64,000 nucleotides of DNA from a virus, in the IMG/VR virus record IMGVR_UViG_3300045996_003284, positions 10,248-74,247 of that record, one strand, 5' to 3'. Under the pieces are notes generated by a model, which was not told the DNA's origin, did not search any database, and saw only the letters and a program-made list of their open reading frames with translations. Positions 33,732 to 59,479 of this stretch are shown here, piece after piece (positions within the stretch are counted from its first letter, which is position 1; every line of letters starts with the position of its first letter). A program made the translations under genes and the position numbers.

Positions 33732-34085
33732 CTATTTTCGCAAGGTCAGATGCCAGTAAATACGCCGGTCGCCGCCAACTCTCACGACGGTCCAGGTGTC
33801 GGAGCCGTCGATGATCGTGTCGCCCTGCCGGGGTTCGAAGGACAGATCGCGGGCGCGAAGAATGCACATCTGGTCACCGGCCCGGATATCGGTACCGTTG
33901 ATCAGGTTGACAGCGTATTCGACCAGGGCTGCTTTCAAGGTGGTTTCCGTCACGGTGACGTTTTGGGGGGCCTCCGGATTGTAAGCGGCGCGCTCCATGC
34001 GGCGGTAGGTAACCGGACGGATCAGGTCACCGAGTAATATCCAGGCTTTGTCCAGACCGTTTTTAACAACCGTGAGCAAACTCAT
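33732..34085 (-). CDS. Head-closure (stopper) protein
   Basis: NGT.IRAGD...EPRQGDTI.DG..W.VV; follows the adaptor. Confidence 0.8.
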   Translation of the reverse strand: MSLLTVVKNGLDKAWILLGDLIRPVTYRRMERAAYNPEAPQNVTVTETTLKAALVEYAVNLINGTDIRAGDQMCILRARDLSFEPRQGDTIIDGSDTWTVVRVGGDRRIYWHLTLRK

Positions 34086-34636
34086 CGGACAAGTCTCCCG
34101 GAGCCGTAGCCGTAGCGCGGCATGCCAAGACCGCGCAGTTTCATATAGACGGAGCGCGGCATCAGCAGCGGTGCCGTGGTGACCGATGAGGACGACCCGG
34201 ACGACGACGAGGACCCGGCCATGGTAACGGCGATGGGACCAATCTCAACCTTGGACACATCACCGTCCGATGCTGAAACGACTTCGGTAACGCCGCTATC
34301 CCGCTGGCGGCGCAGGAACAGAGCCAGTTCTGCCGTCGCTTGGCGAGCGGCCATGGGGATTTCGTTGCTCCGGATCATGCTTCGTCCGGAGCGGTCCGGC
34401 ATGCCATAGCGTGGCAACTGGAGCGCCTGGGTGTAGCGCAGAACGACACCGTTGAATTCCCAGAAGTCATCGATGATCGACGTCGCCTGGATCAGGGCGG
34501 CCTGCTTATCTTCCAGGTCGAGGGAATCCCAGTCATCACGATCCATGCTGGACGCAAAGTAGGAATCGGCCCAGGTGACCGAGACATAAGAGTTCGCCTC
34601 GGATAGACCCGAGCCGTCTTCCACGATAAAAGCCAC
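34082..34636 (-). CDS. Head-tail adaptor (DnaT-like family)
   Basis: IVEDGSG...ANSYVS...AD.YF, K.AALI.AT..ID, QAL..PR. Confidence 0.88.
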   Translation of the reverse strand: MAFIVEDGSGLSEANSYVSVTWADSYFASSMDRDDWDSLDLEDKQAALIQATSIIDDFWEFNGVVLRYTQALQLPRYGMPDRSGRSMIRSNEIPMAARQATAELALFLRRQRDSGVTEVVSASDGDVSKVEIGPIAVTMAGSSSSSGSSSSVTTAPLLMPRSVYMKLRGLGMPRYGYGSGRLVR

Positions 34637-37600: not shown

Positions 37601-37863
37601 GATGATGCGGCCATGTCGATGTGCGTGGTGAAGCGGTGGGTACCACCGCGCACGTAGATCGTCTTGCGGCTGGGGTCAGCCGAAGCCATCTCAACGGCTT
37701 TGGATACCGTCAGGAAGGGTGCCCCCTGGGTGCCTGCGGCGCCGTCGCTGCCGTTGGTCGCAACGTACCAAGCGGTGACGTCGAGTGGGGTTTCCGGCTC
37801 AACCGGTGGCTCCACGGAGGTCCGACGGCGCGACCCCGTCGCGGTATGCATCATCATGCTCAT
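34696..37863 (-). CDS. Beta-helix glycan-active protein fused to a C-terminal LamG-like spike domain
   Basis: YVATNGSD...GT...PF.T, AGYPGETAVISGG, D.GAI, IYLDD.SS; TFSR.S.ATYF...PRF...GLLLE..TTNLL. Confidence 0.8.
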   Translation of the reverse strand: MSMMMHTATGSRRRTSVEPPVEPETPLDVTAWYVATNGSDGAAGTQGAPFLTVSKAVEMASADPSRKTIYVRGGTHRFTTHIDMAASSADLTIAGYPGETAVISGGERLTGFASEGSGLYSVSTTITSLDLAIGNKRQRVAQTGVLDPADPYHTGFLLADAVATPSTTQFRFRDTDVPAGLVQAGLMAQLPGMSPIDTNVINVTTLKPVSAIDYTSKTITLTAADTGAETVKTGSVYRLLNHASLIRNTREFGWRASDGKLVVKPESYNFQSLGVMVPRVQSLFQMDAGADNVTFSNLTFADVRWDGAAVYLSGAVGVRFGGCRFLNLGTGIHISSGNNTLIAGNTFEGTAGDALYIGTNVSGTTIYANTFRDVGEFGSGSALYCQDTSNTKVVYNDVYGAGQYAFSFKGAGTGHTAFTCSNNFITRTNRRAYDTGAIEFLNPDDVDLNATVSGNYISDAGGFGINASGTLLDPYRASCIYLDDLSSDVTVTKNFLRGATWGQVFIHGGDDNVIENNFHIIQPQDLYVSTLHDNGDLTGNVNPERNSFQKNIYYSTTARTGTLWNVDGLGADNVINNNIYFNLPLLSGYDADSQIADPLFADFGADSFVLQGTSPAFAKGIVDLEWSRMGTYGYTESAATTETLPRFWSSWADAPFLDLNYQTHVALYGVETFSRPSGATYFNNRGRLVEANGNQPRFNFNPATQEPLGLLLEDATTNLLANSSDLTSAAWVKNNTTASSGGGIGLDGANTLSVLTKTSEQGTVTQELETFPVNSFLTASVYLKKGTLDDWVYLNMGDRYAWFNLATGTTGTMIAGGTNIVSVATSMTSMGGGIYKCVFTVATTGITDSYLRIAGDVSDQGFWGTVGATVLLAGAQVEAKDHATSLVLTTTEPVTRAADTLYITSTEVPDLAFADAEGTVIADIALIQPVDSSAATIVSIDDGDASAATSDRVEISRTASGAFQTSIVTAGASQMSISGSSIPQNTDVRLTAAWKVNDAMASVNGAIIGTDTSVTVPTGLNRINLAARSAADSAVASGHYRRVRVYGKRITAFPT

Positions 37864-38282
37864 GCTGCGGTGTCACCGCCGAGCACGACCTGAGCGGCGG
37901 TGCCGCTGGCATTGGAAGCGACGAAAACATAAGCCTGGGCATATTGTCCGGCCGTCTTGCTGTGCCCACCGCGCGACAGCAGGGCACCGCTGGCGGCGAC
38001 CGCGACCGTAACCTGTCCAGCCCCCATCTGGACGATTCCGCATTCCCATCCGTCCGGGAGGGAATTGGGAAGTGTCAGGGTGACGGCACCGGACGAGTTA
38101 AAGACGATCCGGCGCCGGTTGTCAGCGGCGGTGGCGGTGTAACTGGCGGTCTTGGTCAGGTTGGCCTGGATGGTCCGGTCTTCCAGGGTGTCGATCAGGT
38201 CGTGCAGGTCCTGCGCCGTGATCGCTCCGGACACGCCAATCGGCATGTTGGTCTTGAGGGTGGCGATCGTCTGGATGGTCAT
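37860..38282 (-). CDS. Fibre adaptor paralog 1 (LKTNMP N-module plus beta-sandwich)
   Basis: Close paralog of 58346..58762 and 58918..59334; ATGA-coupled to 34696..37863. Confidence 0.8.
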   Translation of the reverse strand: MTIQTIATLKTNMPIGVSGAITAQDLHDLIDTLEDRTIQANLTKTASYTATAADNRRRIVFNSSGAVTLTLPNSLPDGWECGIVQMGAGQVTVAVAASGALLSRGGHSKTAGQYAQAYVFVASNASGTAAQVVLGGDTAA

Positions 38283-38299
38283 GCGAAAGCTCCAGGCAT

Positions 38300-38321
38300 A
38301 AAAAACCTCCCAAAAGGCGGT
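38300..38321 (-). terminator. Intrinsic terminator directly before the adaptor RBS
   Basis: ACCGCC-TTTTG-GGAGG-TTTTTT. Confidence 0.6.
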
Positions 38322-38362
38322 CTCAGGTGGCGAGAACCGAACAAGCGGAAGGATGGACGCTC

Positions 38363-38551
38363 TTAGTCGACTCGGATATTGCCGAGATGCGTGATGCCCA
38401 AGACGCTGAACAGGAGCCACAGGACGACAAGAACGACCACGGCGATGTTCAGAATTCGTTTGATCTTGGCGTCCATCGGCACGTAGGCATTGATGAGCCA
38501 GAGGACGACCCCCACCACGACAAGCGTGACAATGAGGCTGATAAGGTCCAT
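38363..38551 (-). CDS. Small two-TM membrane protein (Thivi_2564-like family)
   Basis: LISLIVTLVVVGVVLWLIN.YVPMD.KIK.ILN. Confidence 0.75.
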   Translation of the reverse strand: MDLISLIVTLVVVGVVLWLINAYVPMDAKIKRILNIAVVVLVVLWLLFSVLGITHLGNIRVD

Positions 38552-38597
38552 CGGGTTTCTCCATCACATAGGGGGCAGAAGGGGAAAGCACGTATTC

Positions 38598-38951
38598 TCA
38601 GGCCGGCGGGCGAATCAAGGCTTTCTTGACTGTGAAGGTGCCGGTATAGGCGGTTGCGACATCACCGGTCGCGTCGGTGATTTCAAGTTCATGATAGAAA
38701 TTGCCCGACAGGTTGAGAGTATCCTCGGGGTCTAGCACGACCGTGACCGCGCCCCCGATCGCATCCGTGATTTCAAGACCCGCCTCTTCCGTCTTGGTCA
38801 AGAGCGGGGTACTCGAAAAACCAACAGTCTTGGCACGAGAGGCTTGCCACCGCGCTGTCGCGCCGGTGATATCAAAAACATCCCCGGTTGTTGCGTCGGT
38901 GATCGTGAAATTCAGCCTTTTCGTATCGCCCTGGTACATCTCGAAACTCAT
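38598..38951 (-). CDS. BppU N-terminal-like Ig anchor protein
   Basis: YQGDT..L.FTITD....DITGA, G.V.V.L.PEDT..L.G.FY.ELEITD. Confidence 0.7.
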   Translation of the reverse strand: MSFEMYQGDTKRLNFTITDATTGDVFDITGATARWQASRAKTVGFSSTPLLTKTEEAGLEITDAIGGAVTVVLDPEDTLNLSGNFYHELEITDATGDVATAYTGTFTVKKALIRPPA

Positions 38952-41368
38952 GCAACCTCCACGCGAGCCGTCAGGCTGGTTGTTGGGGTGACCTCGCCTG
39001 TTAGGTCGACCTGGTATCGGACTGATCCAATCAGCGAGACCTGCTGCACAATGTCGGTCGCGCCATACACGATGTAGTTGCCCACGGCTGCCGTTGTGAG
39101 CATCGGCAGCATGATGACAACCGTAGCCTCACCGTCCGGAATCGTCCGGACCCCGGAGGCATCATGGTCGACAAGCCTGAGATGCGCAGCCGAAACCCCG
39201 GAGCGGATAGGGAGACTGCGGGATCCTTCTGCGTTGTGATTGGCCGCGCGCAAAAGGATTGCACTGGTGCCAAACAAATTAGGGGGGAGAGAAAGACCTG
39301 TCCCCATCCCAATAAGAGGCGCCATCGTAACGGCGACGGTCGCATCGATCGGCGGAACGCTCCGCGTGGCGGTGGCCACCGACTGGGCTTTCGGGAGTGC
39401 TGCGGCCGATTGCCCAAGCCGATCCGGGACCGTCCGTGATCCCGACGCCGCGGTTTGGCAAAGCGGGAGACGGGCCGACGCAGTACCGTTGATTCCGGGC
39501 GCGAAAACCTGCCCAGCGGAAGCGGTCGTCAGATGCGGGATTGCCGCAGCGCCGCTTCCTGTCCGTTGAGGAATCGTTCGGTCACCGGTCGCCGTTTCGA
39601 CCATCTTTGGCAAGACACCGGCGACGACGCCCAACCGGTCGGGAATTTCCCGAACACCCGTGGCTGACGCTTGTAGGGCGGCCAAACGCCCCTCAACGAG
39701 TCCATCCAGCCCGCCGATTCCACGCGCGCCGGTGGCGCTGTGACTGAGCGTGGGGGTCTGGGATTGGATCGTGCCGACAATATCCGGAAGCGTACGCGAC
39801 CCGGCTGCAACGGTGCCAAGAGCTGACAGCCGCGCAGTCGACAAACCGCTGATGCTGGGCAGAAATACCTGTCCCGCAGCAAGACTTGCCGGGAGCGAAA
39901 GCTCGGCTGCACCGGTTCCCATCCGATCCGGGATGGTCCGAGTGCCAGTTGCCGTCGTTGTCCCGATTTTTAGAGTGCTTGCAGCGGTACCCAGACGGTC
40001 TGGGATTGTCCGGCTGGCGGTTGCAACGGTTGTTAAATTGGAAAGACTCGCTGCTGACAGACCTGTCCGGTCCGGAATTGTGCGCGCGCCCGCAGCAACA
40101 CTTGCCAAAAATGAAAGCTCGGCCGAACCGGTTCCCGTCCGTTCCGGAATCGTCCGGGCACCGGTTGCCACCGTCGTCCCAATTTGCAGAATGCTTGCGG
40201 CAGTCCCAAGGCGATCTGGGATTGTCCGGCTGGCGGCTGCTGCGGTGGCAAGCTTCGCAAGACTCGCCGCTGACAGACCTGTCCGGTCCGGAATCGTACG
40301 CGTGCCCTCAGCAACCGACGTTGTTTGGGCAAGGGACGCTGCCGACGAACCCGTTCGCTCGGGGAGGGTTCGAGTTCCGGCCGCAACCGACGTTGTTTGA
40401 GAGAGGGCTGTCGCCGATGAACCCGTTCGCTCTGGAAGGATCCGGGTGCCAGCCGCCGTCGACCGGATCGTCCCAAGAGTAGCACTGGAACTTCCGGTAT
40501 AGCTTGGCGCTTCATATGCCCCAACAGCGGCGGTCGTGGCTTTGGGTAGGGTTCCGGCCGATGTGCCGGTAATCTCTGTGGTGGACGTATGAAGAGAATA
40601 AAGTTTGCGTTGCAGCGGTCTCAGAAATTGATACGGGGCTTTGTTGAGAGAGATCTGCTCTTCGGCTGTAAGCGCACGGTTCCAGATCGCTGCGTAGTAA
40701 CACGTTCCGTTTGTCCCATCCCCGTAAGCCACCACATTGCGATTCATCAAGATGACGGTTTTGTCCGCACCAAAGAGAATCGGAGCGCTGTCAAACGTGT
40801 TCGATGTCGTTGATTTTGAGACACCGTTCAGACGGAGAGTCGCCGACGTATCCGACCGGGTTGCGATAAGATGCTGGGAACTCGCCGTGGGAAATGAGCC
40901 ATTTTCAAAAATCGCGGCTCTCGGATTGTTCGCCACGCCATAAGCATATTGCAGAGAAATTCGGGTGGTCGAACTATCCCGAGTCAGTGAGATAGGCTGA
41001 TAGGGGATCGCATGTTCGGTACTGTAATAGGGAAGATGAACAAGACGGCCGTTGCTCGCTGACGACCGGATATCGACGAGGGTAGAAACCGTAAACGCGG
41101 TCGTAATGGTACCAACGGTTTGAGCGCTGTAACCATAAGCGACGCCGACCGAAATCGTGGAAATGGAGTTGAATCCAACTCCACTGGGGCCGGCGGCTAT
41201 CTGAGCGGCGTTGATATAAGTTGGCAGGGAACGATTGACGAGTTCTGGGGCTCCTCTCTGTCCGGGGAGGGCATAGAACACCAACCCGCGCGTCAGCGGA
41301 TGAGACCAGTCGATCTCGACCGGGCCGGTTGGCTGCTGAAGCCAGCGGGTTGGAAAGATCAGGGCCAT
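38948..41368 (-). CDS. LamG-tipped protein with ~21 x 24-aa repeats (putative long filament core/ruler)
   Basis: HPL.RGLVF...IWNRAL LamG domain followed by A.G.RT.P.R.G repeats. Confidence 0.75.
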   Translation of the reverse strand: MALIFPTRWLQQPTGPVEIDWSHPLTRGLVFYALPGQRGAPELVNRSLPTYINAAQIAAGPSGVGFNSISTISVGVAYGYSAQTVGTITTAFTVSTLVDIRSSASNGRLVHLPYYSTEHAIPYQPISLTRDSSTTRISLQYAYGVANNPRAAIFENGSFPTASSQHLIATRSDTSATLRLNGVSKSTTSNTFDSAPILFGADKTVILMNRNVVAYGDGTNGTCYYAAIWNRALTAEEQISLNKAPYQFLRPLQRKLYSLHTSTTEITGTSAGTLPKATTAAVGAYEAPSYTGSSSATLGTIRSTAAGTRILPERTGSSATALSQTTSVAAGTRTLPERTGSSAASLAQTTSVAEGTRTIPDRTGLSAASLAKLATAAAASRTIPDRLGTAASILQIGTTVATGARTIPERTGTGSAELSFLASVAAGARTIPDRTGLSAASLSNLTTVATASRTIPDRLGTAASTLKIGTTTATGTRTIPDRMGTGAAELSLPASLAAGQVFLPSISGLSTARLSALGTVAAGSRTLPDIVGTIQSQTPTLSHSATGARGIGGLDGLVEGRLAALQASATGVREIPDRLGVVAGVLPKMVETATGDRTIPQRTGSGAAAIPHLTTASAGQVFAPGINGTASARLPLCQTAASGSRTVPDRLGQSAAALPKAQSVATATRSVPPIDATVAVTMAPLIGMGTGLSLPPNLFGTSAILLRAANHNAEGSRSLPIRSGVSAAHLRLVDHDASGVRTIPDGEATVVIMLPMLTTAAVGNYIVYGATDIVQQVSLIGSVRYQVDLTGEVTPTTSLTARVEVA
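39075..40575 (-). repeat. 72-bp-period coding repeat, ~21 units, including a 216-bp higher-order duplication
   Basis: e.g. AAGTRTLPERTGSSAASLAQTTSV / AEGTRTIPDRTGLSAASLAKLATA. Confidence 0.85.
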
Positions 41369-41375
41369 CGGTGTG

Positions 41376-41810
41376 TCAGACCGTCTGGGCGGTCAAGCCC
41401 TGCCATCCAACCGTCGTCGCGGTTGCTGCGTCGAGCGCTGCTCCCGTCATATTGCGGATTCGCAGTTGCCAGTAGTTCGGCATGGAGCCGTTAAACCCCG
41501 CGGCCAGACTGACAACGCGTTTGCGCGTTTGCACGCCCGCCGCCGCGAGAGAAATCGTGCCCACCCATTTATCGTTGACATCATCATCAAAATCGGTGTT
41601 ATCGACACTGCCCTTCAGCCAGATCTCGACATAGCCCGTCGCCGTCGCGCCAGACAGCGTCGTCACCTGGATTTCCGCCAGAACATCAAGGTAGTTGGTT
41701 GTCGCGTTGCTCACGGTCGGCGATGTTGCGGAGGAGGAATTGGCCAGCGACGTCAGGCCCGTAATTGTCAGGGTTTGGACCGAGCCATACAGGGTTTTGA
41801 TTTCAGCCAT
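41376..41810 (-). CDS. Beta-sandwich virion protein, paralog of 44904..45332
   Basis: LT..GL..LAN.SSATS..V.N...YLDVL, NDKW.GT, P..W..R.RN.TGAA, AQTV. Confidence 0.75.
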   Translation of the reverse strand: MAEIKTLYGSVQTLTITGLTSLANSSSATSPTVSNATTNYLDVLAEIQVTTLSGATATGYVEIWLKGSVDNTDFDDDVNDKWVGTISLAAAGVQTRKRVVSLAAGFNGSMPNYWQLRIRNMTGAALDAATATTVGWQGLTAQTV

Positions 41811-41897
41811 TGCTTACGTTCCAGCCTCTTCGCGCGCAGGACAGCGGACCTGACGTCACCCTGACATCAGGGTCGTCGATGGACAGATCAGAACCGA

Positions 41898-42311
41898 CTA
41901 GGCCGTCGGCATGGTAATGGTGACCGAGGAGATCGAGACGACACCGCCGGTGACAATGTTGGTTGCGGACAGGTTGAGCTGTTGGCCACTGGTTCCGACC
42001 GTTCCTTGATAAACAACAGTGGTCCCGTCCGACTGCAGTGCCCGAAAGAACGTTGCCGTTCCATCCGCGTCGGCACCACTGTCCTGGGTGATGGCGTTGG
42101 CTGTGATGATCCGGTCGGCACCACTGGCCGATGCCGACCCAAACGCCGTCGCACCGAAGCGCAGTTCGGCCAGCAGGGTGTTGCCGCTCAGGGCAGCGTT
42201 GGCCGTCGCGGGCTCGGTTCCCGAATAGATTCGGATGTAGCCGGTGTTGAGGGACGTGGCGATGGTGCTGAGCATCGCATCAGCGGTGGCGTTCGTGATC
42301 TTCATGGCCAT
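41898..42311 (-). CDS. ~14 kDa putative filament subunit, paralog B
   Basis: RIYSG.EP......LSGNTLLAEL, ADGTATFFRAL.SDGTT. Confidence 0.75.
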   Translation of the reverse strand: MAMKITNATADAMLSTIATSLNTGYIRIYSGTEPATANAALSGNTLLAELRFGATAFGSASASGADRIITANAITQDSGADADGTATFFRALQSDGTTVVYQGTVGTSGQQLNLSATNIVTGGVVSISSVTITMPTA

Positions 42312-42328
42312 GGCGGATCTCCAGACAT

Positions 42329-42353
42329 AAAAAAAGCCACCGGAAAGGGCGGC
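42329..42353 (-). terminator. Intrinsic terminator before subunit B
   Basis: GC stem plus TTTTTT, then ATGTCTGGAG. Confidence 0.7.
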
Positions 42354-42391
42354 TGACGGAAGAGAGCGGAGCAGGGAAGGCAGTCGACCGC

Positions 42392-42814
42392 TTAGACCGG
42401 CATCGCGACGGTCAAAGACTGGATGTCGACCGGACCGCCGAGATAGACTTGATAGGGGTTAACGCCCGGTCCGGTCATGACCAGTTCGGCGCTGTCACCG
42501 GCCGCGCCCTGCAGGATGATGGTGGTCCCGTCTGACTTCAGCGCCCGGAAGAAGGTGGCGATACCCTCAGCATTGGCGCTGGTGTCGGAGGCAATCAGGT
42601 TGGCGGTGATCACCCGGTTGGAACCGCTCGTCGAAGGTGTGCCGAAGGCGGTGGCGCTGAAGGTCAATTCCGCCAACAGGGTATTGCCCGATAGGGCGGT
42701 CGTGGCGGTTTCCGGCTCGCTCCCGGAGTAGATCCGCAGGATGCCGCTGTTCAGCGCAGTGCTCAGTCCGGACAGCAGGGTATCAGCCCCGGACGGGGAC
42801 AGTTTGGTGGCCAT
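42392..42814 (-). CDS. ~14 kDa putative filament subunit, paralog A
   Basis: Clear paralog of 41898..42311. Confidence 0.75.
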   Translation of the reverse strand: MATKLSPSGADTLLSGLSTALNSGILRIYSGSEPETATTALSGNTLLAELTFSATAFGTPSTSGSNRVITANLIASDTSANAEGIATFFRALKSDGTTIILQGAAGDSAELVMTGPGVNPYQVYLGGPVDIQSLTVAMPV

Positions 42815-42827
42815 TGTGACTCCAATG

Positions 42828-42849
42828 AAAAAGCCGCCCGAAAGGCGGC
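42828..42849 (-). terminator. Intrinsic terminator before subunit A
   Basis: GCCGCC-TTTCG-GGCGGC-TTTTT. Confidence 0.8.
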
Positions 42850-42890
42850 CTGGCGAATCGGATAGTGCAGGCCGGAAGGCCCAATACGGG

Positions 42891-43184
42891 TTAAACGGCG
42901 GCGCAGATCAGACGACGGTAGCGCCCCTTCATGTCGGGATTGCCGGCCTTCGGGTCGGTCACAGCGATGACCCGGTAGGTCGCGCCGTCGAAGTCGATCC
43001 GCGTGCCGGCTTTGACCGTGACGTCGCCCCGGACATAGATTTCATGGGTTGCCCGGTAGCGGGCGGCATCGTCGGCGCTGAGCGGGCCTAGGGCGGCGCT
43101 CACCGCCCGATCGCCGATCATGATGGTTCGGCGTCCGCTGTCTGCGGTGCCGGCGCGGTCCAGCCGGGGCACATGAAAAACCAT
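42891..43184 (-). CDS. Second head-closure-like (SPP1 gp16-like) protein
   Basis: ATHEIYVR....VKAG.RI.FDG.TY.V.AV.DP......LIC. Confidence 0.5.
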   Translation of the reverse strand: MVFHVPRLDRAGTADSGRRTIMIGDRAVSAALGPLSADDAARYRATHEIYVRGDVTVKAGTRIDFDGATYRVIAVTDPKAGNPDMKGRYRRLICAAV

Positions 43185-43196
43185 CCGCGCTCTCCT

Positions 43197-44897
43197 TTAG
43201 CTTGTTGGGTAGCCGAGTTTCCTGACCGTCACGCCGATCTCGCGCTCGAAGACCTGTCCGCGGTTGGTCGTGATGGTGCAGATCACGGTGTGCAGTTCGC
43301 CCGGTGGGTTCCAGTTGCTCTTGTCTTGGTCATCAGGATCGATGTAGAGCCAGACCGTGACATTGCGGTCATCGTTGGTGCGGGCATAGAAGCGCAGACC
43401 GACCAGGGTTGCCAGGGCAGACGGCAGCAGTTTGATCGAACTGATGCTGGCGCCGACACCCGTCAGTTCCATGTCGCAGTTGATGGTGTAGGCTTTCAGT
43501 TCGCGCGGCCCCAGCGGCGCGGCCCAGTTGACGGTCTGTGCACCAGTACCGAAATCGACCGTTCGCCAACTTGGCGCCAGGATGTGGGGCAGGCTGGGAA
43601 TGTTCAGCGGATCGGCTGGAACGCCGATGGCACGCACCGTCAGGTCGGGCAACCGGATGGCTGCGGCCCCCGGCATCAACTGTGGTTTTGGCGTGGAGAC
43701 GACGGCGACAGTTGCCGAGGGAAGAGCGATCTGCACGTCGCTGCTGCGAAGGGGCGGGAACGGTTGGGCTTCGGTCGCAAAAATTGGGGACGGCAGAAGA
43801 ATCGAAACCGCAAGGTTCTGTAGGGGGAGACCGGTATCCGCGGTTACGCTGATGGTGGGGCTTCCCAGCGTAGCCTGGATGTCCCCGTTGTTGCCAATGG
43901 GGCGGGCAATTGCTTGAACGGCAACGCGGGGTTGGACGACAAGACTGACGTCTGCCGTAACCGTCGGCGCGATGTCAAATTCTGTACTAAACTCGTAGCT
44001 GAATTCCATGCCGAATTCAGACTCATCCGGTTGGGCCGAATTTGCCTGAACGGTTGGAACGGGAAGAGCAAGGCCGATGGTGCCTATAGGGTGGGGGGGA
44101 ACACTCAGAAGCGGCAGATAGTAGGTTGACGGGGGGAGCGGCGTTTCGAGAAAATCATAGGGAGCGTCAGTGATCAGGCGTTGTTCTGCGTCCGATAACG
44201 CCCGATTCCAGATGTAGCAGTACAGGATGCCGCCGCCGGTGCCGCTGCCGGTGATGGTGTCCGACCGGTTCATATAGACGACCGACGTCGCGGTACCGTA
44301 TCCGACCACACTCGACGCGGTGAAGTAGTTGGTTCCGATGATGTCGAGCTGGACGTTGTTGCGGCGCAGGGTGGCGGTGGCTCCCTTGCGGGTGGCGACG
44401 TAGGACGAGGTGGTGCCAGAGAACACCGCCGACTCAAACGAGCAGTTTTCCGGGCTCCCCGTGGCTGTGCCGATCTCCAGCATGGCGAGGGTCTGGTTCG
44501 TGACCCGCCGCAAGGCCATGACAACCGCCGGCGCGGTGAAAGATGAGTTGTTCTTCGGCACCGAGATGATGCGGGACGAATCGCCGAGCGTTTCCGCGAC
44601 GAATTCGCAGGCGATTGTAAACTCGTTGCCGATGGTCCGGAAGGTGTCTGTGTTATAGGGCGTCCACCAACCGTTTCCAGTCGTTGACGGTGACCAGAAT
44701 CCGACGCCGTTGGTAAAGGTCTTCATCTCGGACGTGCCGAGCGGATGCGAGCGCAGTCCGCCGATCAGGTCCGGATTGCCGTGCGCACCGCCCACCGTGC
44801 CGAACACCAGACCGCGCGCCAGCGGGTGGTTCTGATTCAGGATGGTCGGACCGGACGGCTGACGGCGCCAGCGTCCAGGAATGAGCAGGAACGCCAT
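43197..44897 (-). CDS. LamG-tipped protein with ~6 x 24-aa repeats, FxxxF motif and fused C-terminal anchor domain
   Basis: N-terminus paralogous to 38948..41368; C-terminus paralogous to 45836..46309. Confidence 0.75.
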   Translation of the reverse strand: MAFLLIPGRWRRQPSGPTILNQNHPLARGLVFGTVGGAHGNPDLIGGLRSHPLGTSEMKTFTNGVGFWSPSTTGNGWWTPYNTDTFRTIGNEFTIACEFVAETLGDSSRIISVPKNNSSFTAPAVVMALRRVTNQTLAMLEIGTATGSPENCSFESAVFSGTTSSYVATRKGATATLRRNNVQLDIIGTNYFTASSVVGYGTATSVVYMNRSDTITGSGTGGGILYCYIWNRALSDAEQRLITDAPYDFLETPLPPSTYYLPLLSVPPHPIGTIGLALPVPTVQANSAQPDESEFGMEFSYEFSTEFDIAPTVTADVSLVVQPRVAVQAIARPIGNNGDIQATLGSPTISVTADTGLPLQNLAVSILLPSPIFATEAQPFPPLRSSDVQIALPSATVAVVSTPKPQLMPGAAAIRLPDLTVRAIGVPADPLNIPSLPHILAPSWRTVDFGTGAQTVNWAAPLGPRELKAYTINCDMELTGVGASISSIKLLPSALATLVGLRFYARTNDDRNVTVWLYIDPDDQDKSNWNPPGELHTVICTITTNRGQVFEREIGVTVRKLGYPTS

Positions 44898-44903
44898 TGC
44901 CGC

Positions 44904-45332
44904 CTAGACCGTCTGCGCCGAAACGCCCCGGTAACTGGCAGAGCAGCCCGTCCCGTTGAAGGCCGCCCCGGTGCTGTTGCGAAAGCGAATCCGCCAGAAC
45001 GGCGGCAGGGTGCCGCCGAAACTGGAAGCAATCGACATGACCCGGTTGACGACCTGGGTGCCGGCGGAGACCAGGGGCATGGTACCGATCCACTTGTCGT
45101 TGCCGACAGTGTCGAAATAGACACCGTCGGCCGACCCCGCAGCGTAGACCTCGATGACCCCAGTGGCCAGCGCCCCAGAGCCTGTCGTGATCTGGGCGAA
45201 GATCAGCACGTCGAGGTAGGCAGTGTTGGTAACGTTCGCAGAGGTGGCGGAGGAACCGTTGGCAAGTCCGAGAAGGCCGGAAACCGTGAGGGTGGTGGCG
45301 GTGGCGGCATAGACTGGCTGAATGTTAGCCAT
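44904..45332 (-). CDS. Beta-sandwich virion protein, paralog of 41376..41810
   Basis: Shared motifs and the same AQTV end. Confidence 0.75.
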   Translation of the reverse strand: MANIQPVYAATATTLTVSGLLGLANGSSATSANVTNTAYLDVLIFAQITTGSGALATGVIEVYAAGSADGVYFDTVGNDKWIGTMPLVSAGTQVVNRVMSIASSFGGTLPPFWRIRFRNSTGAAFNGTGCSASYRGVSAQTV

Positions 45333-45804
45333 TGTCAGGGGCCACGTTCAGAGCGCGGGCCGCGGCGACATCGAGATGATGGACCCGCGTTAGACCGATT
45401 TCCTCGGCCCGGCTGATCTGGGTATCCCCCAGCGCGACCATGTCATCACGCTGTTGTTCGGTCATGGCGCCGGCGACAACCATGGTCGAGAGCAAATTGA
45501 ACACGGCGGTGGCGATCTCCGGATCGTTCATTCGGATGGTGTCGAACGAATTGGGCGCCAGGGTTTGCAGAATGGTGATGGCCGATCCCCGGAGGATCGG
45601 GTCCTCCGAGGCGGTGACGGCCTGGATGCGCGGCCACAGGCCCTTGAGCAACACGTGGCTGCGAACTTCCGAGGCCGACACTGCCCTCTTGCCGGGGCGG
45701 GTTGGGGCGTTGAGGGTATCAGCCACGGCGCTGTCGGCCATCTCGGCATAGCCGAGGTTAAGCGGATCGGAGTCTATCTCCGCCGCGAGGGTTTCCAGAT
45801 CCAC
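45325..45804 (-). CDS. Helical phage protein of the filament cassette (GTG start)
   Basis: AAAGGA RBS; L.AEI.SDP...GY......VA..LN ... SRAEEIGL. Confidence 0.65.
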   Translation of the reverse strand: MDLETLAAEIDSDPLNLGYAEMADSAVADTLNAPTRPGKRAVSASEVRSHVLLKGLWPRIQAVTASEDPILRGSAITILQTLAPNSFDTIRMNDPEIATAVFNLLSTMVVAGAMTEQQRDDMVALGDTQISRAEEIGLTRVHHLDVAAARALNVAPDNG

Positions 45805-45835: not shown

Positions 45836-46309
45836 TCAGAGGGATTGGCCCAGTCGGCGGATGGGCAAGCCGATGGTGCGCTCGAAGATTTGGCCGTCCA
45901 TGGCGTTGACCGTGCAGAGCAGGGTGTGGATTTCGCCAGGGGGCTCCCATCCCGGATGGTTGCGTTCATCTTCGTCGATCTGGAACCAGACCGTGATGTT
46001 GGTCATGTCGTTGGTGATGCCGTAGATCCGCAAACCGGCAGCGACGGCGAGCGGCAACAGGACGAGGCTGACCGAGGCGATCCGGTTGGAGATCCCGTCC
46101 ATTTCGACGGAGCAGTCAATGGTGTAGTTCTTCAATTCGTTGGGGTCGAGCGGGTTGGTCCAGGTCACTGTGCCGGTGCCGTTGCCGAAGTTGACGGTCC
46201 GCCAACTTGGCGCCAAGGCATGGCTGATGGCTCCTATATCACCATCGAGCAGCAGTTTGCCGTTTCCCACCAGCAACAGGTAACTGCCGTTTGCAAGAAC
46301 TAAGGCCAC
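45836..46309 (-). CDS. Fibre anchor/adaptor protein with N-terminal LLxxxG repeats
   Basis: LVLANGSYLLLVGNGKLLLDG, then LDP.ELK.YTIDC...FERTI. Confidence 0.7.
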   Translation of the reverse strand: MALVLANGSYLLLVGNGKLLLDGDIGAISHALAPSWRTVNFGNGTGTVTWTNPLDPNELKNYTIDCSVEMDGISNRIASVSLVLLPLAVAAGLRIYGITNDMTNITVWFQIDEDERNHPGWEPPGEIHTLLCTVNAMDGQIFERTIGLPIRRLGQSL

Positions 46310-46394
46310 GGCGAATCCCCCGTGTCGAACAAAAAGTGTAAACGGCAACCGTTAGAAGATCGGTGAACGCTCCTCAGTCTGATTTAGGGTGCGA

Positions 46395-48971
46395 TCAAGA
46401 ACTAGTCGGCGGGTCGGAGGAAACCGGCCCCGTCTCGACGAGGTCAATACCGGGCACGTAGGTCAACCCAACCTTTGCCGCTGGCACGAAATCACCATCG
46501 GGGGGCGAACCCTCGCAGACAAAGCCTTCCCAGTCGCGCGCGGGGTCATTCAACAAAGGCCAGCCGGCGGTGGGCTGGTCGCTGTTGAAAGGGTCGGGCG
46601 CGCGGACAGCGGCGAACACAGGGCCGAAATCCGGGTTGGTGCCGGCGCGACTGTTGGGCCAGACTCCATGGGCTTCGATCTTCTGCGTTGAACTGACGCT
46701 ACCCCACACGTTATCGAGATCAATGGGATACCCATTGGCCTCAAAATCAGCGGCCTTGTTCAGGAAGTGATAGAAAGCGAACGCGCTGCCGGGGTCAGTT
46801 CGAACAACATTGATGTTGCGCAGCAGAAGCCCTGTCATGCCACCGTTGATTTCGGCCGGAACGTAGAAGCCCCGCGTGCCGATACCAACGCTACCGGTCA
46901 AATTGTGAATCCGCACTGACCCGGCACGTCCCGTGCCGGCGGTGCCGGTTGAGAAGATGGTTCCCCGGATACCTTTGTCCGATCCCGTCACGTTGACCAA
47001 GCGGCAGTTCTGCAGGGTGATATCAGTTTTGGCCGAACCCGCGTGGACGAGAACGGCATGACCCTGGGAAATCGACGCGTTGTCAACCAGAACCCCTTCG
47101 AGATAGACCGCGCCGCAGTCTCGAAAATAGAGACTGGCATCGCCGGAAGACGCCACCGCCGACGGTTTGAAAGCGCCGCCGATCACCGTAACCGACGCGG
47201 CTCCATCGAAGAATAGACCCGCGTCCGTATCGACACTGGCCTTTGGGATGACGCGAATGTGTTTGCCAACGACATCGTCACCGGCAAAGGTTCGACGCGA
47301 GTCCTTGTCGAGATGGACTGTCCAGTCGAATGCTGTTCGCGCAGGCCAGGGGAGCGAAACCGGGTTATCGGGAACTTTAACGGTTGAGTCAACAATCGTA
47401 ACAACACAGGTCTCGTTCGAAAGCGTGCAGTTGGTGGGGGATGACAGAACCAAACGGACGGTTTCGTTTTTTTCGACCAAAGAGTCAGCCGTGGTCTGAA
47501 GGGTGACGGTTTGAGTTTCCTGATCTTTCGCGAACTTCAGCACCGTGGGCGGGATCGCGGTAAAATCCCCTGGGGTAGCGGTGCCGGGGGACGTCGCGAC
47601 CGTAACCGAGCAGGCGCCAGTTCCCGATTTGGTCACTGTTATGGTTGTCGAATCGCCTTCGGTTACTGTGACGCTATCCGGCAGATAGACCAGGGGGTCT
47701 GCTTCAGACTGAACGCCATCCGCCGTCCATGTGGTGTTGCACCCAACGCGCTGGGCGGCAATGGTGCGGTTTGCCGCCCCACCCAAGGCTTTGTTGCCAG
47801 GATAATCCGAAACGGGTAAATTCCCACTGTTGGCATCAGGACCACTGGTTGGCGCAACTAAGCCAACGGGGGGCTTTGACCAAGAAACCGCCCCTGCGGC
47901 GCAATGGTAGAACTTGTTTCTCTTGGCTGTTACACCGCGAACAGCGGACCCACCAAGCGTTTCAAGACCCCACCGTTTGGATTCAAAAACCTGATTGTCG
48001 ATAACTTGAATGCTCTTCGAAAGTTGATTTGCGTGGGTGCCAGTATTGCCAACAATAAGAATTGCCGCATGCCTTGTGGTTTTATCATGTTCTTCTTTCA
48101 ACACCTGAGTCAACTGGCCGCTACCGCCGGCCCGATAAACCGTATTGTTCTTAACAAGAGTATCCTGATTGCCGGCTGACCACCAATTGGGCTCAGACGC
48201 GACCAAAATACCGGCGCGTTCGTTTCCGCCACCCTCGACGAAGTTGCCAAGAACGGTGAGGCCCTTCGTTCCAATCCCAGTAATACCGCGCCCACCCCGG
48301 TTGCCACCAACATAGTTGTACCGGCTGACGCAGTCCTGGATAAAGTTGTAACCGTAGCCAACAAAGGCAGTGCAATCGTCCCCGCTTTGCCAAATATAGT
48401 TATACTCGACAATAGTATTGCGCGACGGGTAGGTTGAGCGGGATGTCGTGGTATGAATCGAATCGGCGACCGTGTACATGATCGTATTTCGGGCAATATA
48501 CCCATTGGTAGAGCCCTGAACAAAGATGCCACCGATGTTCTTTAAGCTATTCTTCTTGTTGTCGCCCTCAATCCAGATGTGCGTGATCCGAAAATTGCGT
48601 GTTCCGTAGCGAACGCGCACGCCCGACTTTTCTGGAGGGGCTCCACCATCGATTTGCCGGGTCTGGGGCCAACTGTGCACGCGCATTTTCGTGAGTTCCG
48701 GACCAACGCCTTTCAATTCGATCGAGCGAGCGCGGCGGTCCGTCGCGTACAGCATCGTCACCGGGCCATCCCCCGGCTTGCCATTGACTCCGGAAACCTT
48801 GATGCTGTCGATCGTGAGAACGGAGCTATGGTTATAGGTCCCGGCCGGAATCAGGACGCTATGCCCACCCGCCTTGGCCGCGTTGAAGCAGGCTTGCAGG
48901 GCCTTCTGGTCGTCAGCCTTTCCGTCCCCCTTCGCATTCCAGGGAGCGTTTTTGGGATTCAGGACAGCCAT
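46395..48971 (-). CDS. Beta-helix + Calx-beta + second beta-helix glycan-active protein
   Basis: NAKGDGKADDQKALQA, IPAGTY, Calx-beta VTEG...TAT..DF....L.FA; AGGAG RBS. Confidence 0.8.
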   Translation of the reverse strand: MAVLNPKNAPWNAKGDGKADDQKALQACFNAAKAGGHSVLIPAGTYNHSSVLTIDSIKVSGVNGKPGDGPVTMLYATDRRARSIELKGVGPELTKMRVHSWPQTRQIDGGAPPEKSGVRVRYGTRNFRITHIWIEGDNKKNSLKNIGGIFVQGSTNGYIARNTIMYTVADSIHTTTSRSTYPSRNTIVEYNYIWQSGDDCTAFVGYGYNFIQDCVSRYNYVGGNRGGRGITGIGTKGLTVLGNFVEGGGNERAGILVASEPNWWSAGNQDTLVKNNTVYRAGGSGQLTQVLKEEHDKTTRHAAILIVGNTGTHANQLSKSIQVIDNQVFESKRWGLETLGGSAVRGVTAKRNKFYHCAAGAVSWSKPPVGLVAPTSGPDANSGNLPVSDYPGNKALGGAANRTIAAQRVGCNTTWTADGVQSEADPLVYLPDSVTVTEGDSTTITVTKSGTGACSVTVATSPGTATPGDFTAIPPTVLKFAKDQETQTVTLQTTADSLVEKNETVRLVLSSPTNCTLSNETCVVTIVDSTVKVPDNPVSLPWPARTAFDWTVHLDKDSRRTFAGDDVVGKHIRVIPKASVDTDAGLFFDGAASVTVIGGAFKPSAVASSGDASLYFRDCGAVYLEGVLVDNASISQGHAVLVHAGSAKTDITLQNCRLVNVTGSDKGIRGTIFSTGTAGTGRAGSVRIHNLTGSVGIGTRGFYVPAEINGGMTGLLLRNINVVRTDPGSAFAFYHFLNKAADFEANGYPIDLDNVWGSVSSTQKIEAHGVWPNSRAGTNPDFGPVFAAVRAPDPFNSDQPTAGWPLLNDPARDWEGFVCEGSPPDGDFVPAAKVGLTYVPGIDLVETGPVSSDPPTSS

Positions 48972-49008
48972 CTGCAAACTCCTATGAGTTGGCTTAAAGC
49001 GTGATCTC

Positions 49009-49042
49009 AAAAAAAAGACCGCCCAGGCAACTGAGCGGTCTT
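49009..49042 (-). terminator. Intrinsic terminator after the RTX gene
   Basis: AAGACCGC stem plus T8. Confidence 0.85.
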
Positions 49043-49069
49043 CAACGGCGATGCTTTGTCGCTAGAAAG

Positions 49070-50083
49070 TTAAACAACCCACCAGTCGCCCAGTCCAACC
49101 GCATTGACGTCCAGGATATGGAGCACATGACCATCGTTGTCGGTGCTGGTATAGGTCGTGATGCCGTCATGCTCGACGGCTGTCGTCGTCATCTGTCCTT
49201 CGCCGCCCCGGAACGACAGAGTGTCGATACCGTCCCCTGGGCCGTCGGTGATGGAATCGAAGTCCGTGATGACGTCGTGACCCATCGGCAATTCGTTTGG
49301 ATGATTCGGGTCGAACGCGAGGAAGTCGAAGACGAAGTCGTTGCCCCCACCCGAGTCACCGCCACCGGTGAAGGTCTCACTGCCCTTCCCGGCGATAAAC
49401 ATATCATCCGGCGAGCTGCCGATCACGGTGTTATCGCTGTCGCCGCCGTGATAGATGAGAGAAACCGGTTCGCTGCTGCCCTCAGTCGTGATCACGTTGG
49501 TGCCGGTGAAGACGAGCCTGACCTCGGACTCCCCCGTATCAAAATTCTGGGTGGTGAGATGCCCCTTGCTTTCCCCGGTGATCCAGACCTCAGGGTTTCT
49601 GCCAATGTCAAAGGCCAGGGTGTCCCGGCCGGCATTGCCGTCGAACCGGCTGGTACCATAGTACACCTCGTCATGGATTCCGCCGATGAAGAAGGTGTCA
49701 TCCCCAGTACCGCCGCGCGCGGTGTCCTTACCACCGTTGCCGAATAGGGAATCGTTTCCGGCTCCGCCGTTGAGAAAATCGTCGCCGCCGCTCCCGAGCA
49801 GGAAATCCTGGCCGGCATCGCCGTACAGCTTCAAGGGGCCGCCACTGTAAAGACCCCAGAGCGTGTCGTCGCCGCGTCCGCCCCAGGCACTGTCACGCCC
49901 GCCCTCGGCGAGGTCGATGAAATCGTCACCGTCCTGCCCGTAGATCTTGTTGTTGCCGTCACTACCCTCAATGTGGTCGTCGCCGGCACCGCCATAGGCG
50001 TTTGACTTCCCCGACAAGTAGATATTATCGTCGGATTTGGTGCCGTGTACGGTAGCGTTTTTCTTGCCGTGGATGGTCGCCAT
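49070..50083 (-). CDS. RTX (hemolysin-type) Ca2+-binding repeat protein, moron
   Basis: About 10 GGxGxDxLx nonapeptides, G.D.ITDF; AT-rich upstream region and its own terminator. Confidence 0.9.
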   Translation of the reverse strand: MATIHGKKNATVHGTKSDDNIYLSGKSNAYGGAGDDHIEGSDGNNKIYGQDGDDFIDLAEGGRDSAWGGRGDDTLWGLYSGGPLKLYGDAGQDFLLGSGGDDFLNGGAGNDSLFGNGGKDTARGGTGDDTFFIGGIHDEVYYGTSRFDGNAGRDTLAFDIGRNPEVWITGESKGHLTTQNFDTGESEVRLVFTGTNVITTEGSSEPVSLIYHGGDSDNTVIGSSPDDMFIAGKGSETFTGGGDSGGGNDFVFDFLAFDPNHPNELPMGHDVITDFDSITDGPGDGIDTLSFRGGEGQMTTTAVEHDGITTYTSTDNDGHVLHILDVNAVGLGDWWVV

Positions 50084-50212
50084 GGAGTCCCCCAAAAATC
50101 TTTATTGATTGGTGACAAGGGCGTTCATCTTACCGGATTGCGTCTAAAAAAGAATTATACTGAACGGTGTTTATACGAAAGATAACATGACTTGTGTTGT
50201 TTCTGCACAGGT

Positions 50213-53206: not shown

Positions 53207-53210
53207 GGTG

Positions 53211-56201: not shown

Positions 56202-56240
56202 CAGTCGGCTCCATGGGGGTGCGGGCGGGCAGGGCGCTCA

Positions 56241-58349
56241 TTAAAAGGTCGGCCCGGCGGCCAATGAAACGGTGCCGGTCAGGCTGGCGGGGGCGGAACC
56301 GCCGGTTCCACTGTTGGGGATGGGCACGCTTAGGGTGTTCAGCCGGGTATAGATCAACGGCGTCCGGCCGAGGTCGGAAACGATGTCCTGGCCAGACGCG
56401 ATGGCCTGGGTCTCGGCGGCGGACAGCGTGCCGTTCATCTTGAAGAAGCTGGCCAGACTGCCGTCGAGCCAGCGGGCGCTGCCAGAGATGGGCGGTGCGC
56501 GGGTGGCGAGGACCGGCTCCTCGGTCGGCTGAATGGCGCCGAGACCGGCGACTGAGCGGCTGAAGTAAAGCGTGCGGGAGCCCTTGAGGGGCGTCTGGTA
56601 GATGTTGAGGGTTTCGGTGGCCTTGATCCGCTCAACCGTCCAGAGCCGCCAGGCAGCCGTGGTCAGGCTGGCGTCGGTCAGGCCAATCGCCTGATAGGCG
56701 GAGACCCCGGCGCCACGCACGTTGGCTTCGATGGCGTGGGGGACCGCGGCAGCGGACTCGTGGATGAGGAAATTGACGCTGTGGCTGGTGGTGTAGCCGC
56801 CGACCGAGATGACGTATTGCGCCGCGGTGCCGGTGTTGTCAGCGACCGAAACCCAAACGCCCAGAGTCCAGTCGGCATCCGGGAAGTCCCACAGGGCGCT
56901 GTCAGCGTAGGTGATGCAACCGGTCAGGCCGTCGAAACGCAGCGCCGAGGTCTGGATACCGGGAATGACCGGATCGACCGGCGGGGTCGTCGTGGCCGGC
57001 GCGTTGACCGGGTCCATCAGGGGCAGCATAGCATTGCCGGTCGTGCGGCCCAGAGCGGTGACGTTGTCAAGGATGGCGGAGGTTCCGTCGAACCGGCCGT
57101 ACTGGTAATAGACATCAACGTCCGTGCCAGGATCCGCCGCAAGATGGATCGTAATGGTGCTAGCGCCGATGGCCATGCTGGAAATCGCGAGACTGCCCGC
57201 GTCGCTGTAGGCGGTGTTTTTGGTAAACACCTTGAAGTCGCTCGGTTGGGTGCCGCTGCTGAGCGCCAATGCCGTACCGGCGCGATGCTGGACCGACAGG
57301 GTCAGCGTGTGGCCGGAGCGGCTGACACCGGCGATCGCCGGCCCGAGGTTGGGGCGCAGCTCGGTCCCGATAGCATAAAGCAGAGCATGGGCGTAAGCGT
57401 TGGCGATGGTTTCCGAGCCGGCGGGCGTCTGGTTCGACGCGTCGGCGAGCGCTACGGTGGGTGTCCAGCCAAGGTTGAGAGTGCCGGGGTTCTCGGCGAT
57501 GTACTCGAAGTGGGCGCGGCGCAGATCGTGGACCGCGTCGGTCGGGTCGGCGTTCCGGCGCATCAGAGGGAACACGGCAAAGCGCTGGATGGTCGCGATG
57601 CTTTCCAGGCGGGTGCGAAGGTCGGCCAAACGGGTCTTGTACTGCGCGCGGGTGAGCAGGCCGATGTCGCCGCTACCCTGGTGCCACAGGATGGCACCGA
57701 CCCGGCCAAGACTGGCAAGCGCGGACGCAGCGGCGGTATAGGCAGAATCGGCGGCTTCCCAATCAGCGATCGAGACGCTGTCAGTGGCAGTCTGGAGCAC
57801 AGCCTGGGGCACGCCGGTGGCGGTAGCCATCAGGTTGAGGAAACGGATGATGCCGTTGCCGCTGGAGTTGGGGAGCACACCGGGCAGTTCCCAGGCCGCG
57901 CCGTCGAACACGACGGTGCGGTCATCCGGCGTCGGTGGGGCATCGACCGCGGTGCTCATCCGGCGCTGCTGAGACGCCCCGGCGAAAACCCAAACATCGC
58001 CGACGCCCCACTGGGTGGTTCCGGTGACGATCTGGACGGTGTTGAGGAAGCGGACTTGGATCTTGTACCAACCACCCTGGGGCACGGAAATCGACCCGCT
58101 CCAGGTGCCGCCGGAAGGGGATGGCGCCGCCACCAACCAGTCCTGAATTACGGCAAAGGTCATGCTGTCGATGACGCGCGCCTCAACGGCGGCCGGAATT
58201 CCGGTGTAGCTGCCGGACAGCGGCACCGGCGAGGCAGCGCCAATCCGCTGGTAGACACGCCGCGGCGCCACCTGGGACAGGGCGATCGTGCCGGTTGCGA
58301 CGGTAACGTTCCGGCGGCGCGCAGCGGCCGAGGCGGCGGCGATGGTCAA
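56241..58349 (-). CDS. SGNH/sialate O-acetylesterase-like domain plus LamG domain
   Basis: VPQGGWY...WGVGDVWVFAGASQ, GAILWHQG; C-terminal ALRFDG...DWTLGVW. Confidence 0.8.
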   Translation of the reverse strand: MTIAAASAAARRRNVTVATGTIALSQVAPRRVYQRIGAASPVPLSGSYTGIPAAVEARVIDSMTFAVIQDWLVAAPSPSGGTWSGSISVPQGGWYKIQVRFLNTVQIVTGTTQWGVGDVWVFAGASQQRRMSTAVDAPPTPDDRTVVFDGAAWELPGVLPNSSGNGIIRFLNLMATATGVPQAVLQTATDSVSIADWEAADSAYTAAASALASLGRVGAILWHQGSGDIGLLTRAQYKTRLADLRTRLESIATIQRFAVFPLMRRNADPTDAVHDLRRAHFEYIAENPGTLNLGWTPTVALADASNQTPAGSETIANAYAHALLYAIGTELRPNLGPAIAGVSRSGHTLTLSVQHRAGTALALSSGTQPSDFKVFTKNTAYSDAGSLAISSMAIGASTITIHLAADPGTDVDVYYQYGRFDGTSAILDNVTALGRTTGNAMLPLMDPVNAPATTTPPVDPVIPGIQTSALRFDGLTGCITYADSALWDFPDADWTLGVWVSVADNTGTAAQYVISVGGYTTSHSVNFLIHESAAAVPHAIEANVRGAGVSAYQAIGLTDASLTTAAWRLWTVERIKATETLNIYQTPLKGSRTLYFSRSVAGLGAIQPTEEPVLATRAPPISGSARWLDGSLASFFKMNGTLSAAETQAIASGQDIVSDLGRTPLIYTRLNTLSVPIPNSGTGGSAPASLTGTVSLAAGPTF

Positions 58350-58762: not shown

Positions 58763-58917
58763 GTCGCTACTCCGATTGTTGGTCGCGGTTGGGGATGCGG
58801 GCCTGCGGGGGAAGCCGGACTTAAACGGTGATCTCAAACACGACGGAATGGGGCCAACAGCGGCGCGAACGGTCTTGGCAAAAGTACCGCAATCGCCTTC
58901 CTTTGGGAGGGGAGTGT

Positions 58918-59402: not shown

Positions 59403-59479
59403 AAGGATCTCCGGAAAGGAATGGGGGCGGCGGCGCGGGGTGTCGAGCCGCCGCCGTTCGGTCGGGACCGAAGCCGTGC

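Follow-up and report, generated by a model that had tools for sequence, protein, structure and literature searches.

Two probable beads-on-a-string neck fibres, one long and one short, encoded by paralogous gene sets of a 74-kb siphophage

What do two paralogous sets of genes, each with a protein built on 24-amino-acid (aa) repeats, contribute to a virus particle? This question is raised by positions 38,598–45,804 of a 64,000-nucleotide stretch of viral DNA (the window, positions 10,248 to 74,247 of record IMGVR_UViG_3300045996_003284, a single contig of 74,247 bp). An earlier note on this DNA had described a long and a short repeat protein tipped with a LamG domain, accompanied by duplicated ~14 kDa and ~143-aa beta proteins, and had proposed that the small subunit polymerises on the repeat protein as on a tape-measure-like core, giving two lectin-tipped filaments of different length. 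The cassette genes were indeed found at the coordinates given there, all of them on the minus strand (Table 1). The analysis presented here suggests that the region probably codes for two paralogous beads-on-a-string (chain-like) accessory fibres, one long and one short, of a 74-kb siphophage. The repeat proteins are referred to as ropes and the 14-kDa proteins as beads.

The 14-kDa proteins are true paralogues (53% identity, E 6e-50) and, as judged by sequence, homologues of solved bead proteins. In phmmer searches against the PDB, bead 1 matched gp40 of phage A1002 over its full length (PDB 44NX, E 2.8e-12) and a 141-aa chain in the tail-fibre model of phage 7-7-1 (PDB 9RKV, E 8.7e-8). By its size and description, this chain is the 7-7-1 garland protein gp014, to whose neighbour gp012 bead 1 shows 35% identity. 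Bead 1 is 70–75% identical to its orthologues in two distant viral contigs, L006 and L007, while bead 2 reaches only 53–54%; by this measure, bead 1 is the conserved orthologue and bead 2 a diverged copy.

The bead family is large, with 3,087 cluster representatives at E ≤ 0.001, and many unannotated “virion structural proteins” are therefore probably parts of such fibres. Three of its members (P0058, P0059, and P0061) carry two or three tandem copies in one polypeptide, either of 269 aa or of 694–738 aa with the copies at the C-terminus, and are possibly covalent dimers or rope-bead fusions. In many mycobacteriophages, the bead homologue is the last gene of the minor-tail cluster, directly before the lysis genes, and no rope is named there; Papyrus gp34 (L001) and Fowlmouth gp28 (L002), for example, are annotated only as “virion structural protein.”

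The beads-on-a-string type of fibre was first shown by cryo-electron microscopy in 2023 and is known from a handful of structures with 2 to 11 docking sites. In the phages A1002, GP4, VP1, and Bas63, proteins of the gp8/gp80 type dimerise and are strung on an extended rope, which completes their incomplete beta-sandwiches (PMC13730344; PMC12609058). The A1002 rope gp39 consists of an N-terminal immunoglobulin (Ig)-like cap, a dock region for 11 dimers at a spacing of ~27 Å per dimer and a C-terminal anchor (PMC13730344). In the collar protein of Bas63, the rope is N-terminal and an Ig collar domain C-terminal (PMC12609058). Fiber I of GP4 (PDB 8JOU; Zheng et al., 2023, J Mol Biol 435:168258) is described in later reports as a rope with a gene of its own, on which gp80 dimers are threaded; the fibre is held by the Ig-like fibre-tail adaptor gp77, which according to the same reports forms a 15-mer ring round the head-tail adaptor (PMC13730344; PMC12609058; PMC11445570). 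The garland fold of phage Milano has been linked to T4 gp8 and A511 gp105 and follows the same beads-on-a-string principle; for the garlands of Milano and 7-7-1, no string was identified (PMC10811340; PMC12796354).

Both proteins identified here as putative ropes show the polarity of A1002 gp39 and of the Bas63 collar protein, namely globular N-terminal cap, rope, and C-terminal anchor. The long rope carries a LamG domain at its N-terminus (Pfam PF13385, 34.8 bits against a curated cutoff of 27.6, E 2.2e-8), behind which a 24-aa unit is repeated exactly 21 times without a single indel, where the earlier note had counted about 21. All of them were detected by a repeat hidden Markov model (HMM), and autocorrelation at period 24 gave a z of 21.9. 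The units, with the consensus R-T-I-P-D-R-T-G-T-S-A-A-x-L-P/S-x-L-T-T-V-A-T-G-x, are rich in Ala, Thr, Ser, and Gly and contain few large hydrophobic residues. The previously described 216-bp duplication is present as well and comprises a three-unit block. The short rope is a genuine paralogue, and its LamG domain is assigned by paralogy only (33% identity to that of the long rope over 262 aa, E 8e-30). Its 5–6 units, in line with the previous count of about 6, are degenerate, though still of period 24 (z 4.5); an HMM of the long rope repeats gave no significant match to the short rope or to GP4 gp79. Comparable spacings occur in the dock region of the phiR18 homologue of A1002 gp39, with h-P-R/M motifs every 19–23 aa, and in GP4 gp79, with a 20-aa period (z 6). 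Between LamG cap and repeats, three ropes carry an acidic-aromatic peptide, EFGMEFSYEFSTEF in the short rope (residues 294–307, window 43,977–44,018), GDEFTSEFTSEFG in the L007 rope P0042, and GAFSNGFSSGFSAG in the L006 rope P0043. The long rope lacks this peptide, which could serve in the docking of a further partner.

The same gene order as in the window was found in L006 and L007, where the Gp77-like gene is followed by the genes for the 97-aa HCP-like protein, the bead, an extra protein, the helical 159-aa protein, the jelly roll, the LamG-rope, and the BppU_N-like protein; in L006, an Ad1 adaptor gene lies shortly after the module. Rope homologues contain 3 to 21 HMM-detected units. The L006 rope (642 aa) has 13 of them, while in the L007 rope (1325 aa) three LamG domains are interspersed with repeat runs, so that extra LamG domains are placed along the rope. 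Both contigs encode one bead and one rope each, and the window two of each; this agreement in number is counted in favour of beads assembling on ropes. Within the window, the genes for bead 2, bead 1, one jelly roll, and the long rope follow each other in this order. A bead-then-rope order is likewise seen in GP4, where gp80 is followed by gp79, and in phiR18, where gp41-like and gp40-like genes precede the gp39-like gene.

According to the earlier note, each set possesses an Ig-type anchor, a separate BppU-like gene in one and a fused domain in the other. The BppU_N-like gene was confirmed (PF10651, 25.6 bits against a curated cutoff of 23.1). The start of this gene and the stop of the long rope gene overlap, and it is kept directly after the rope in L006 and L007. 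The two anchors are not equivalent, however, as the fused domain of the short rope is without sequence similarity to the BppU_N-like protein and is Gp77-like instead. This C-terminal region of ~125 aa is 52% identical to a free-standing 170-aa protein, whose gene at 45,836–46,348 had been left outside the coordinates of the earlier note. The assignment to the Gp77 family (PF23148) is based on matches of 5/5 members of the domain family (best E 1.1e-8); alignment of the Gp77-like domain to GP4 gp77 with hhalign gave E 0.069 over 77 columns. The free-standing protein carries in addition an N-terminal extension (residues 1–40) with two short h-L-L-L strands, which is kept in L006 and L007. By analogy to the collar protein of Bas63, it might be a miniature rope.

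The genomic context places the cassettes in a long minus-strand late operon. It runs from the scaffold protein (62,329–63,180) and an SPP1-like major head protein (61,185–62,177) through a ~26-kb block of fibre- and depolymerase-like genes to the head-tail adaptor Ad1 (34,082–34,636), followed by head closure, tail completion, tail terminator, and major tail protein genes. The operon continues with the tape measure protein (24,799–29,835; phrog_2335, E 2.5e-54) and lambda-like distal tail genes. The virus is a siphophage whose head is SPP1-like and whose tail is lambda-like. The ~26-kb block contains both cassettes, with Ad1 a few kb downstream of them, and this position near the head-tail adaptor suggests that the products are neck fibres. 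The earlier note had instead drawn an analogy to the head filaments of flagellotropic phages. Capsid filaments that catch flagella would agree with the location of the genes, which are flanked by those for the major head protein and Ad1 in the head-to-neck section of the operon, and with the resemblance of the jelly-roll protein described below to the trimeric capsid cement protein KHP40 (structural comparison, Z 8.5); moreover, the fibres of GP4 are described as docking onto the capsid, and the up-whiskers of Bas63 touch it (PMC12609058). However, the Gp77 family, of which the anchor domain is a member, rings the head-tail adaptor in GP4, and nothing ties the module to flagella. Furthermore, the only 7-7-1 homologues of genes described here are garland proteins, which sit on the baseplate and not on the capsid fibres, whose proteins are not known (PMC10811340; PMC12796354). 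The analogy is consequently not supported, and head filaments are regarded as a very remote explanation.

Two neck fibres of the beads-on-a-string type, in turn, can be pictured as follows. Each rope would be a single extended chain with the LamG domain as a lectin-type cap at its free end, followed by the 24-aa docking units and a C-terminal anchor. Dimers of the 14-kDa beads would clamp successive units by beta-strand augmentation, at about one dimer per unit, so that the number of units would set the length of the fibre. Scaled from the spacing in A1002, the long fibre would measure ~55–60 nm and the short one ~16 nm. The C-terminal strands of the long rope may lock into a separate Ig protein, either the BppU_N-like protein encoded downstream or the free Gp77-like protein. 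The Ig domains would probably form a collar at the head-tail adaptor, and the fibres would leave from the neck and bind host surface glycans via their LamG tips and perhaps also via the beads. We infer the docking itself, its stoichiometry, the location in the virion, and a separate bead partner for each rope. The core of the earlier proposal, a repeat protein that serves as ruler for a small subunit in two lectin-tipped filaments of different length, is supported by the homology of the beads to solved fibres. Polarity and gene order agree with those fibres, and no autonomous fold of the repeats was predicted with confidence. The architecture as such was already known. The term “tape-measure-like” holds in a functional sense only, since length would be set by repeat number; Pfam and phrog searches gave no match of the ropes to tape measure families, and the real tape measure protein is encoded elsewhere.

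Several observations weigh against this interpretation. Bead 1 gave no BLASTP alignment with GP4 gp80, so that the two are linked only via A1002 gp40 and published structural comparisons. No sequence homology of the rope repeats to GP4 gp79 or to PDB chains was detected, and gp79 itself is a candidate for the GP4 rope, inferred from its position and periodicity only. Likewise, the window's own matches to Gp77 fall below the Pfam cutoff (E 0.0069 and 0.015), and the invariable immediate neighbour of the rope gene is the jelly-roll gene and not the bead gene. Finally, the low AlphaFold2 (AF2) confidence of the repeats is weak evidence, as the underlying alignment comprised only 9 sequences, and a strict 24-residue period is typical of beta-solenoids, too.

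The last two points bear on the possibility that the 24-aa repeats fold by themselves, as a monomeric beta-solenoid or a homotrimeric beta shaft. The LamG protein would then be a conventional fibre, with the 14-kDa proteins as garland-type decorations bound at other sites, where they might for instance cross-link the tips of fibres in the manner of Milano and 7-7-1. A coil length of 24 residues is typical of right-handed beta-helices, and the period of the long rope is strictly kept over 21 units without indel. AF2 moreover drew two short strands per unit, and the garlands of Milano and 7-7-1 are described with no string identified. On the other hand, the LamG domain was modelled as folded, with a predicted local distance difference test (pLDDT) of 70–90, whereas residues 254–806 reached a pLDDT of only 25–38, though solenoids are usually predicted well. 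This low confidence fits a rope that depends on a partner for its structure but is not decisive. The Ala/Thr/Ser/Gly-rich units with few large hydrophobic residues, the match of N-terminal globular cap and C-terminal Ig anchor to the solved ropes, and the interruption of the array by whole LamG domains in the L007 relative P0042 likewise argue against self-folding repeats, which are considered unlikely.

A further alternative concerns the ~143-aa beta proteins, which are real paralogues (49% identity, E 5e-45) and which, rather than the phrog_3758 proteins, might assemble on the repeats. Their genes are always located immediately upstream of the rope genes and match them 1:1 in number. The neighbours of the AF2 model in structural comparisons, led by XepA (Z 11.0) and the fibre tip protein Bd2133 (Z 9.8), include Ena pilus subunits (Z 8.7), which polymerise by strand donation. 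The model itself, however, is a complete eight-strand TNF/C1q-type jelly roll (pLDDT 91.8) with no open edge evident. Additionally, all solved ropes carry beads of the gp8/gp80 type, homologues of which are present here and are equally 1:1 with the ropes. Assembly of the jelly-roll proteins along the ropes is thus held to be quite improbable. Their classification as a second, gp41-like bead was ruled out by the complete TNF/C1q-like fold. The likeliest options are those of conserved partners that act as a putative tip adhesin or assembly partner. About 30 metagenomic homologues of the jelly roll were found. A search for loci of the family yielded none in genome contigs and only a 1.4-kb contig in metagenome contigs; among viral contigs, the single-sequence scan retrieved none and the profile scan L006 and L007. 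The long rope and the jelly roll had no tblastn match in 50,697 phage records, and sequence searches of the PDB with both ropes and the jelly roll returned nothing relevant.

Among the solved systems, the fibre of the Pseudomonas podophage A1002 (rope gp39, beads gp40 and gp41; PMC13730344) offers the closest bead by sequence. Two tandem bead genes precede the rope gene in both phages, the ropes share an N-terminal globular cap and a C-terminal anchor, and the arrangement of one docking unit of ~20–24 aa per dimer would be the same. In A1002, however, the rope is fused to part of the nozzle, bears an Ig-like cap and accommodates both bead types on its 11 sites, whereas the siphophage possesses two ropes of 21 and ~6 putative sites with LamG caps and with Gp77-like or BppU_N-like Ig anchors. 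Fiber I of the Ralstonia podophage GP4 likewise combines a separately encoded rope beside the bead gene, a Gp77-family Ig adaptor, and a rope period of ~20–24 aa in an accessory fibre at the head-tail adaptor, but it carries five dimers per rope, and the rope candidate gp79 has neither a LamG cap nor sequence similarity to the ropes described here. The layout of the short rope, in which an Ig-like collar domain follows C-terminally after the rope, recalls the collar-whisker complex of the Escherichia myophage Bas63, as does the likely location at the neck, where adaptor and head-completion proteins meet; in Bas63, only two dimers are bound per rope and a distal lectin cap is lacking (PMC12609058). 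The Agrobacterium garlands of Milano (gp125/gp127) and 7-7-1 (gp014/gp012), with the T4 gp8/A511 gp105 fold, are related through the sequence homology of the beads and through two paralogues per phage that flank or precede a candidate string gene. Unlike the proposed neck fibres, they are situated on the baseplate around the fibre tips, and their string is not identified.

Table 1. Coordinates of features of the two fibre gene sets in the window.
Feature	Position	Strand	Basis
BppU_N-like Ig protein, 117 aa	38598..38951	-	PF10651 E 1.1e-5; phrog_1084 E 4.8e-17
Long rope, putative, 806 aa: LamG cap 1-255, 21 x 24-aa units 262-765, conserved C-terminal tail 766-806	38948..41368	-	Pfam, repeat HMM, autocorrelation, AF2
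Array of 21 x 24-aa repeats	39074..40585	-	Repeat HMM and alignment
216-bp tandem duplication, a block of three repeats in two copies	39873..40304		Copies 80% identical, each 3 x 72 nt
Jelly-roll protein copy 1, 144 aa, TNF/C1q-like fold	41376..41810	-	AF2 pLDDT 91.8, structural neighbours
Bead protein 1, 137 aa, conserved orthologue	41898..42311	-	PDB 44NX and 9RKV matches; phrog_3758 E 2.6e-34
GC hairpin and T-run, then GGAG, upstream of bead gene 1	42335..42354	-	Sequence scan and loci comparison
Bead protein 2, 140 aa, diverged paralogue	42392..42814	-	phrog_3758 E 2.5e-23
GC hairpin and T-run, then GGAG, upstream of bead gene 2	42831..42851	-	Sequence scan and loci comparison
97-aa protein similar to head-completion proteins in their C-terminal half only	42891..43184	-	Pfam Phage_HCP E 1.2e-5, 26.3 bits against cutoff 25
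Short rope, putative, 566 aa: LamG cap 1-260, acidic-aromatic peptide 294-307, ~6 degenerate 24-aa units ~270-440, fused Gp77-like Ig domain 441-566	43197..44897	-	Paralogy, autocorrelation, family search
Jelly-roll protein copy 2, 142 aa	44904..45332	-	49% identical to copy 1
159-aa helical protein	45325..45804	-	Homology to L006/L007; directly upstream of the jelly-roll gene in both loci
Free-standing Gp77-like Ig adaptor, 170 aa, ~40-aa N-terminal extension; reaching beyond the coordinates of the finding	45836..46348	-	Pfam Gp77 PF23148 E 0.0069

The remaining elements of the cassettes include a terminator and a strong ribosome-binding site, which had been reported before each bead gene. 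The GC hairpin, T-run, and GGAG are present at both positions. Terminator-like sites are not in excess in the region as a whole (8 against 7.6 expected by chance), but the arrangement of hairpin, U-run, and ribosome-binding site also precedes the orthologous gene in L006 and L007, where the hairpins were missed by a strict terminator scan and found with RNA folding. The 97-aa protein, which could be a neck-docking piece for the collar, is kept beside the Gp77-like gene in L006 and L007; a full Hc1 gene is present as well (33,732–34,085). The helical protein overlaps a longer open reading frame of 214 aa, in which the similarity to the L006 and L007 proteins sets in at residue ~57, and the sequence comparison makes the GTG at 45,804 the likely true start. 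In the ESM Atlas, only unnamed viral clusters matched it. Like the jelly rolls, it is regarded as a conserved partner, putatively a tip adhesin or an assembly factor.

Upstream of the cassettes, at 46,395–58,349 on the minus strand, lie the genes of five large proteins that carry pectate-lyase/Calx-beta, RTX, PcRGLX-like, and SASA esterase domains. For depolymerase-like genes of a siphophage, this position after the major head protein gene and before those of the neck is unusual. Three small proteins (37,860–38,591, 58,918–59,601, and 58,346–58,837, all on the minus strand) share a C-terminal domain of ~140 aa (52–61% identity, phrog_21978/phrog_21510-like), a weak further copy of which is located at 11,047–11,382. 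Two of the three genes are found directly upstream of one for a large enzyme-like protein, a 1055-aa beta-helix protein or the 702-aa SASA esterase. Their arrangement gives the impression of another repeated cassette type in the 26-kb appendage block, composed of anchor plus enzyme.

While the architecture was already known from GP4 (2023), Bas63 (2025), and A1002 (2026), the pairing of a long and a short rope with two bead genes, the LamG caps, the jelly-roll partner, and the siphophage setting are new. A more far-reaching interpretation, which we regard as doubtful, would see in the ropes true, fast-evolving molecular rulers whose length is tuned heritably by duplications such as that of 216 bp. 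Rope and bead paralogues would have co-evolved in pairs, LamG cap and jelly roll would form a composite lectin tip, and the whole would represent a distinct subfamily of modular “lectin-on-a-rope” adhesins of siphophage necks. In either case, a long and a short version appear to be paired in one virion with a bead paralogue available for each, and the recent three-unit duplication shows a route by which length can change. The cassette thereby offers a small natural experiment on two questions, namely whether the length of a fibre follows from the number of its repeats and whether beads are specific for their ropes, and it may help to find the string that is missing for the garlands of Milano and 7-7-1.

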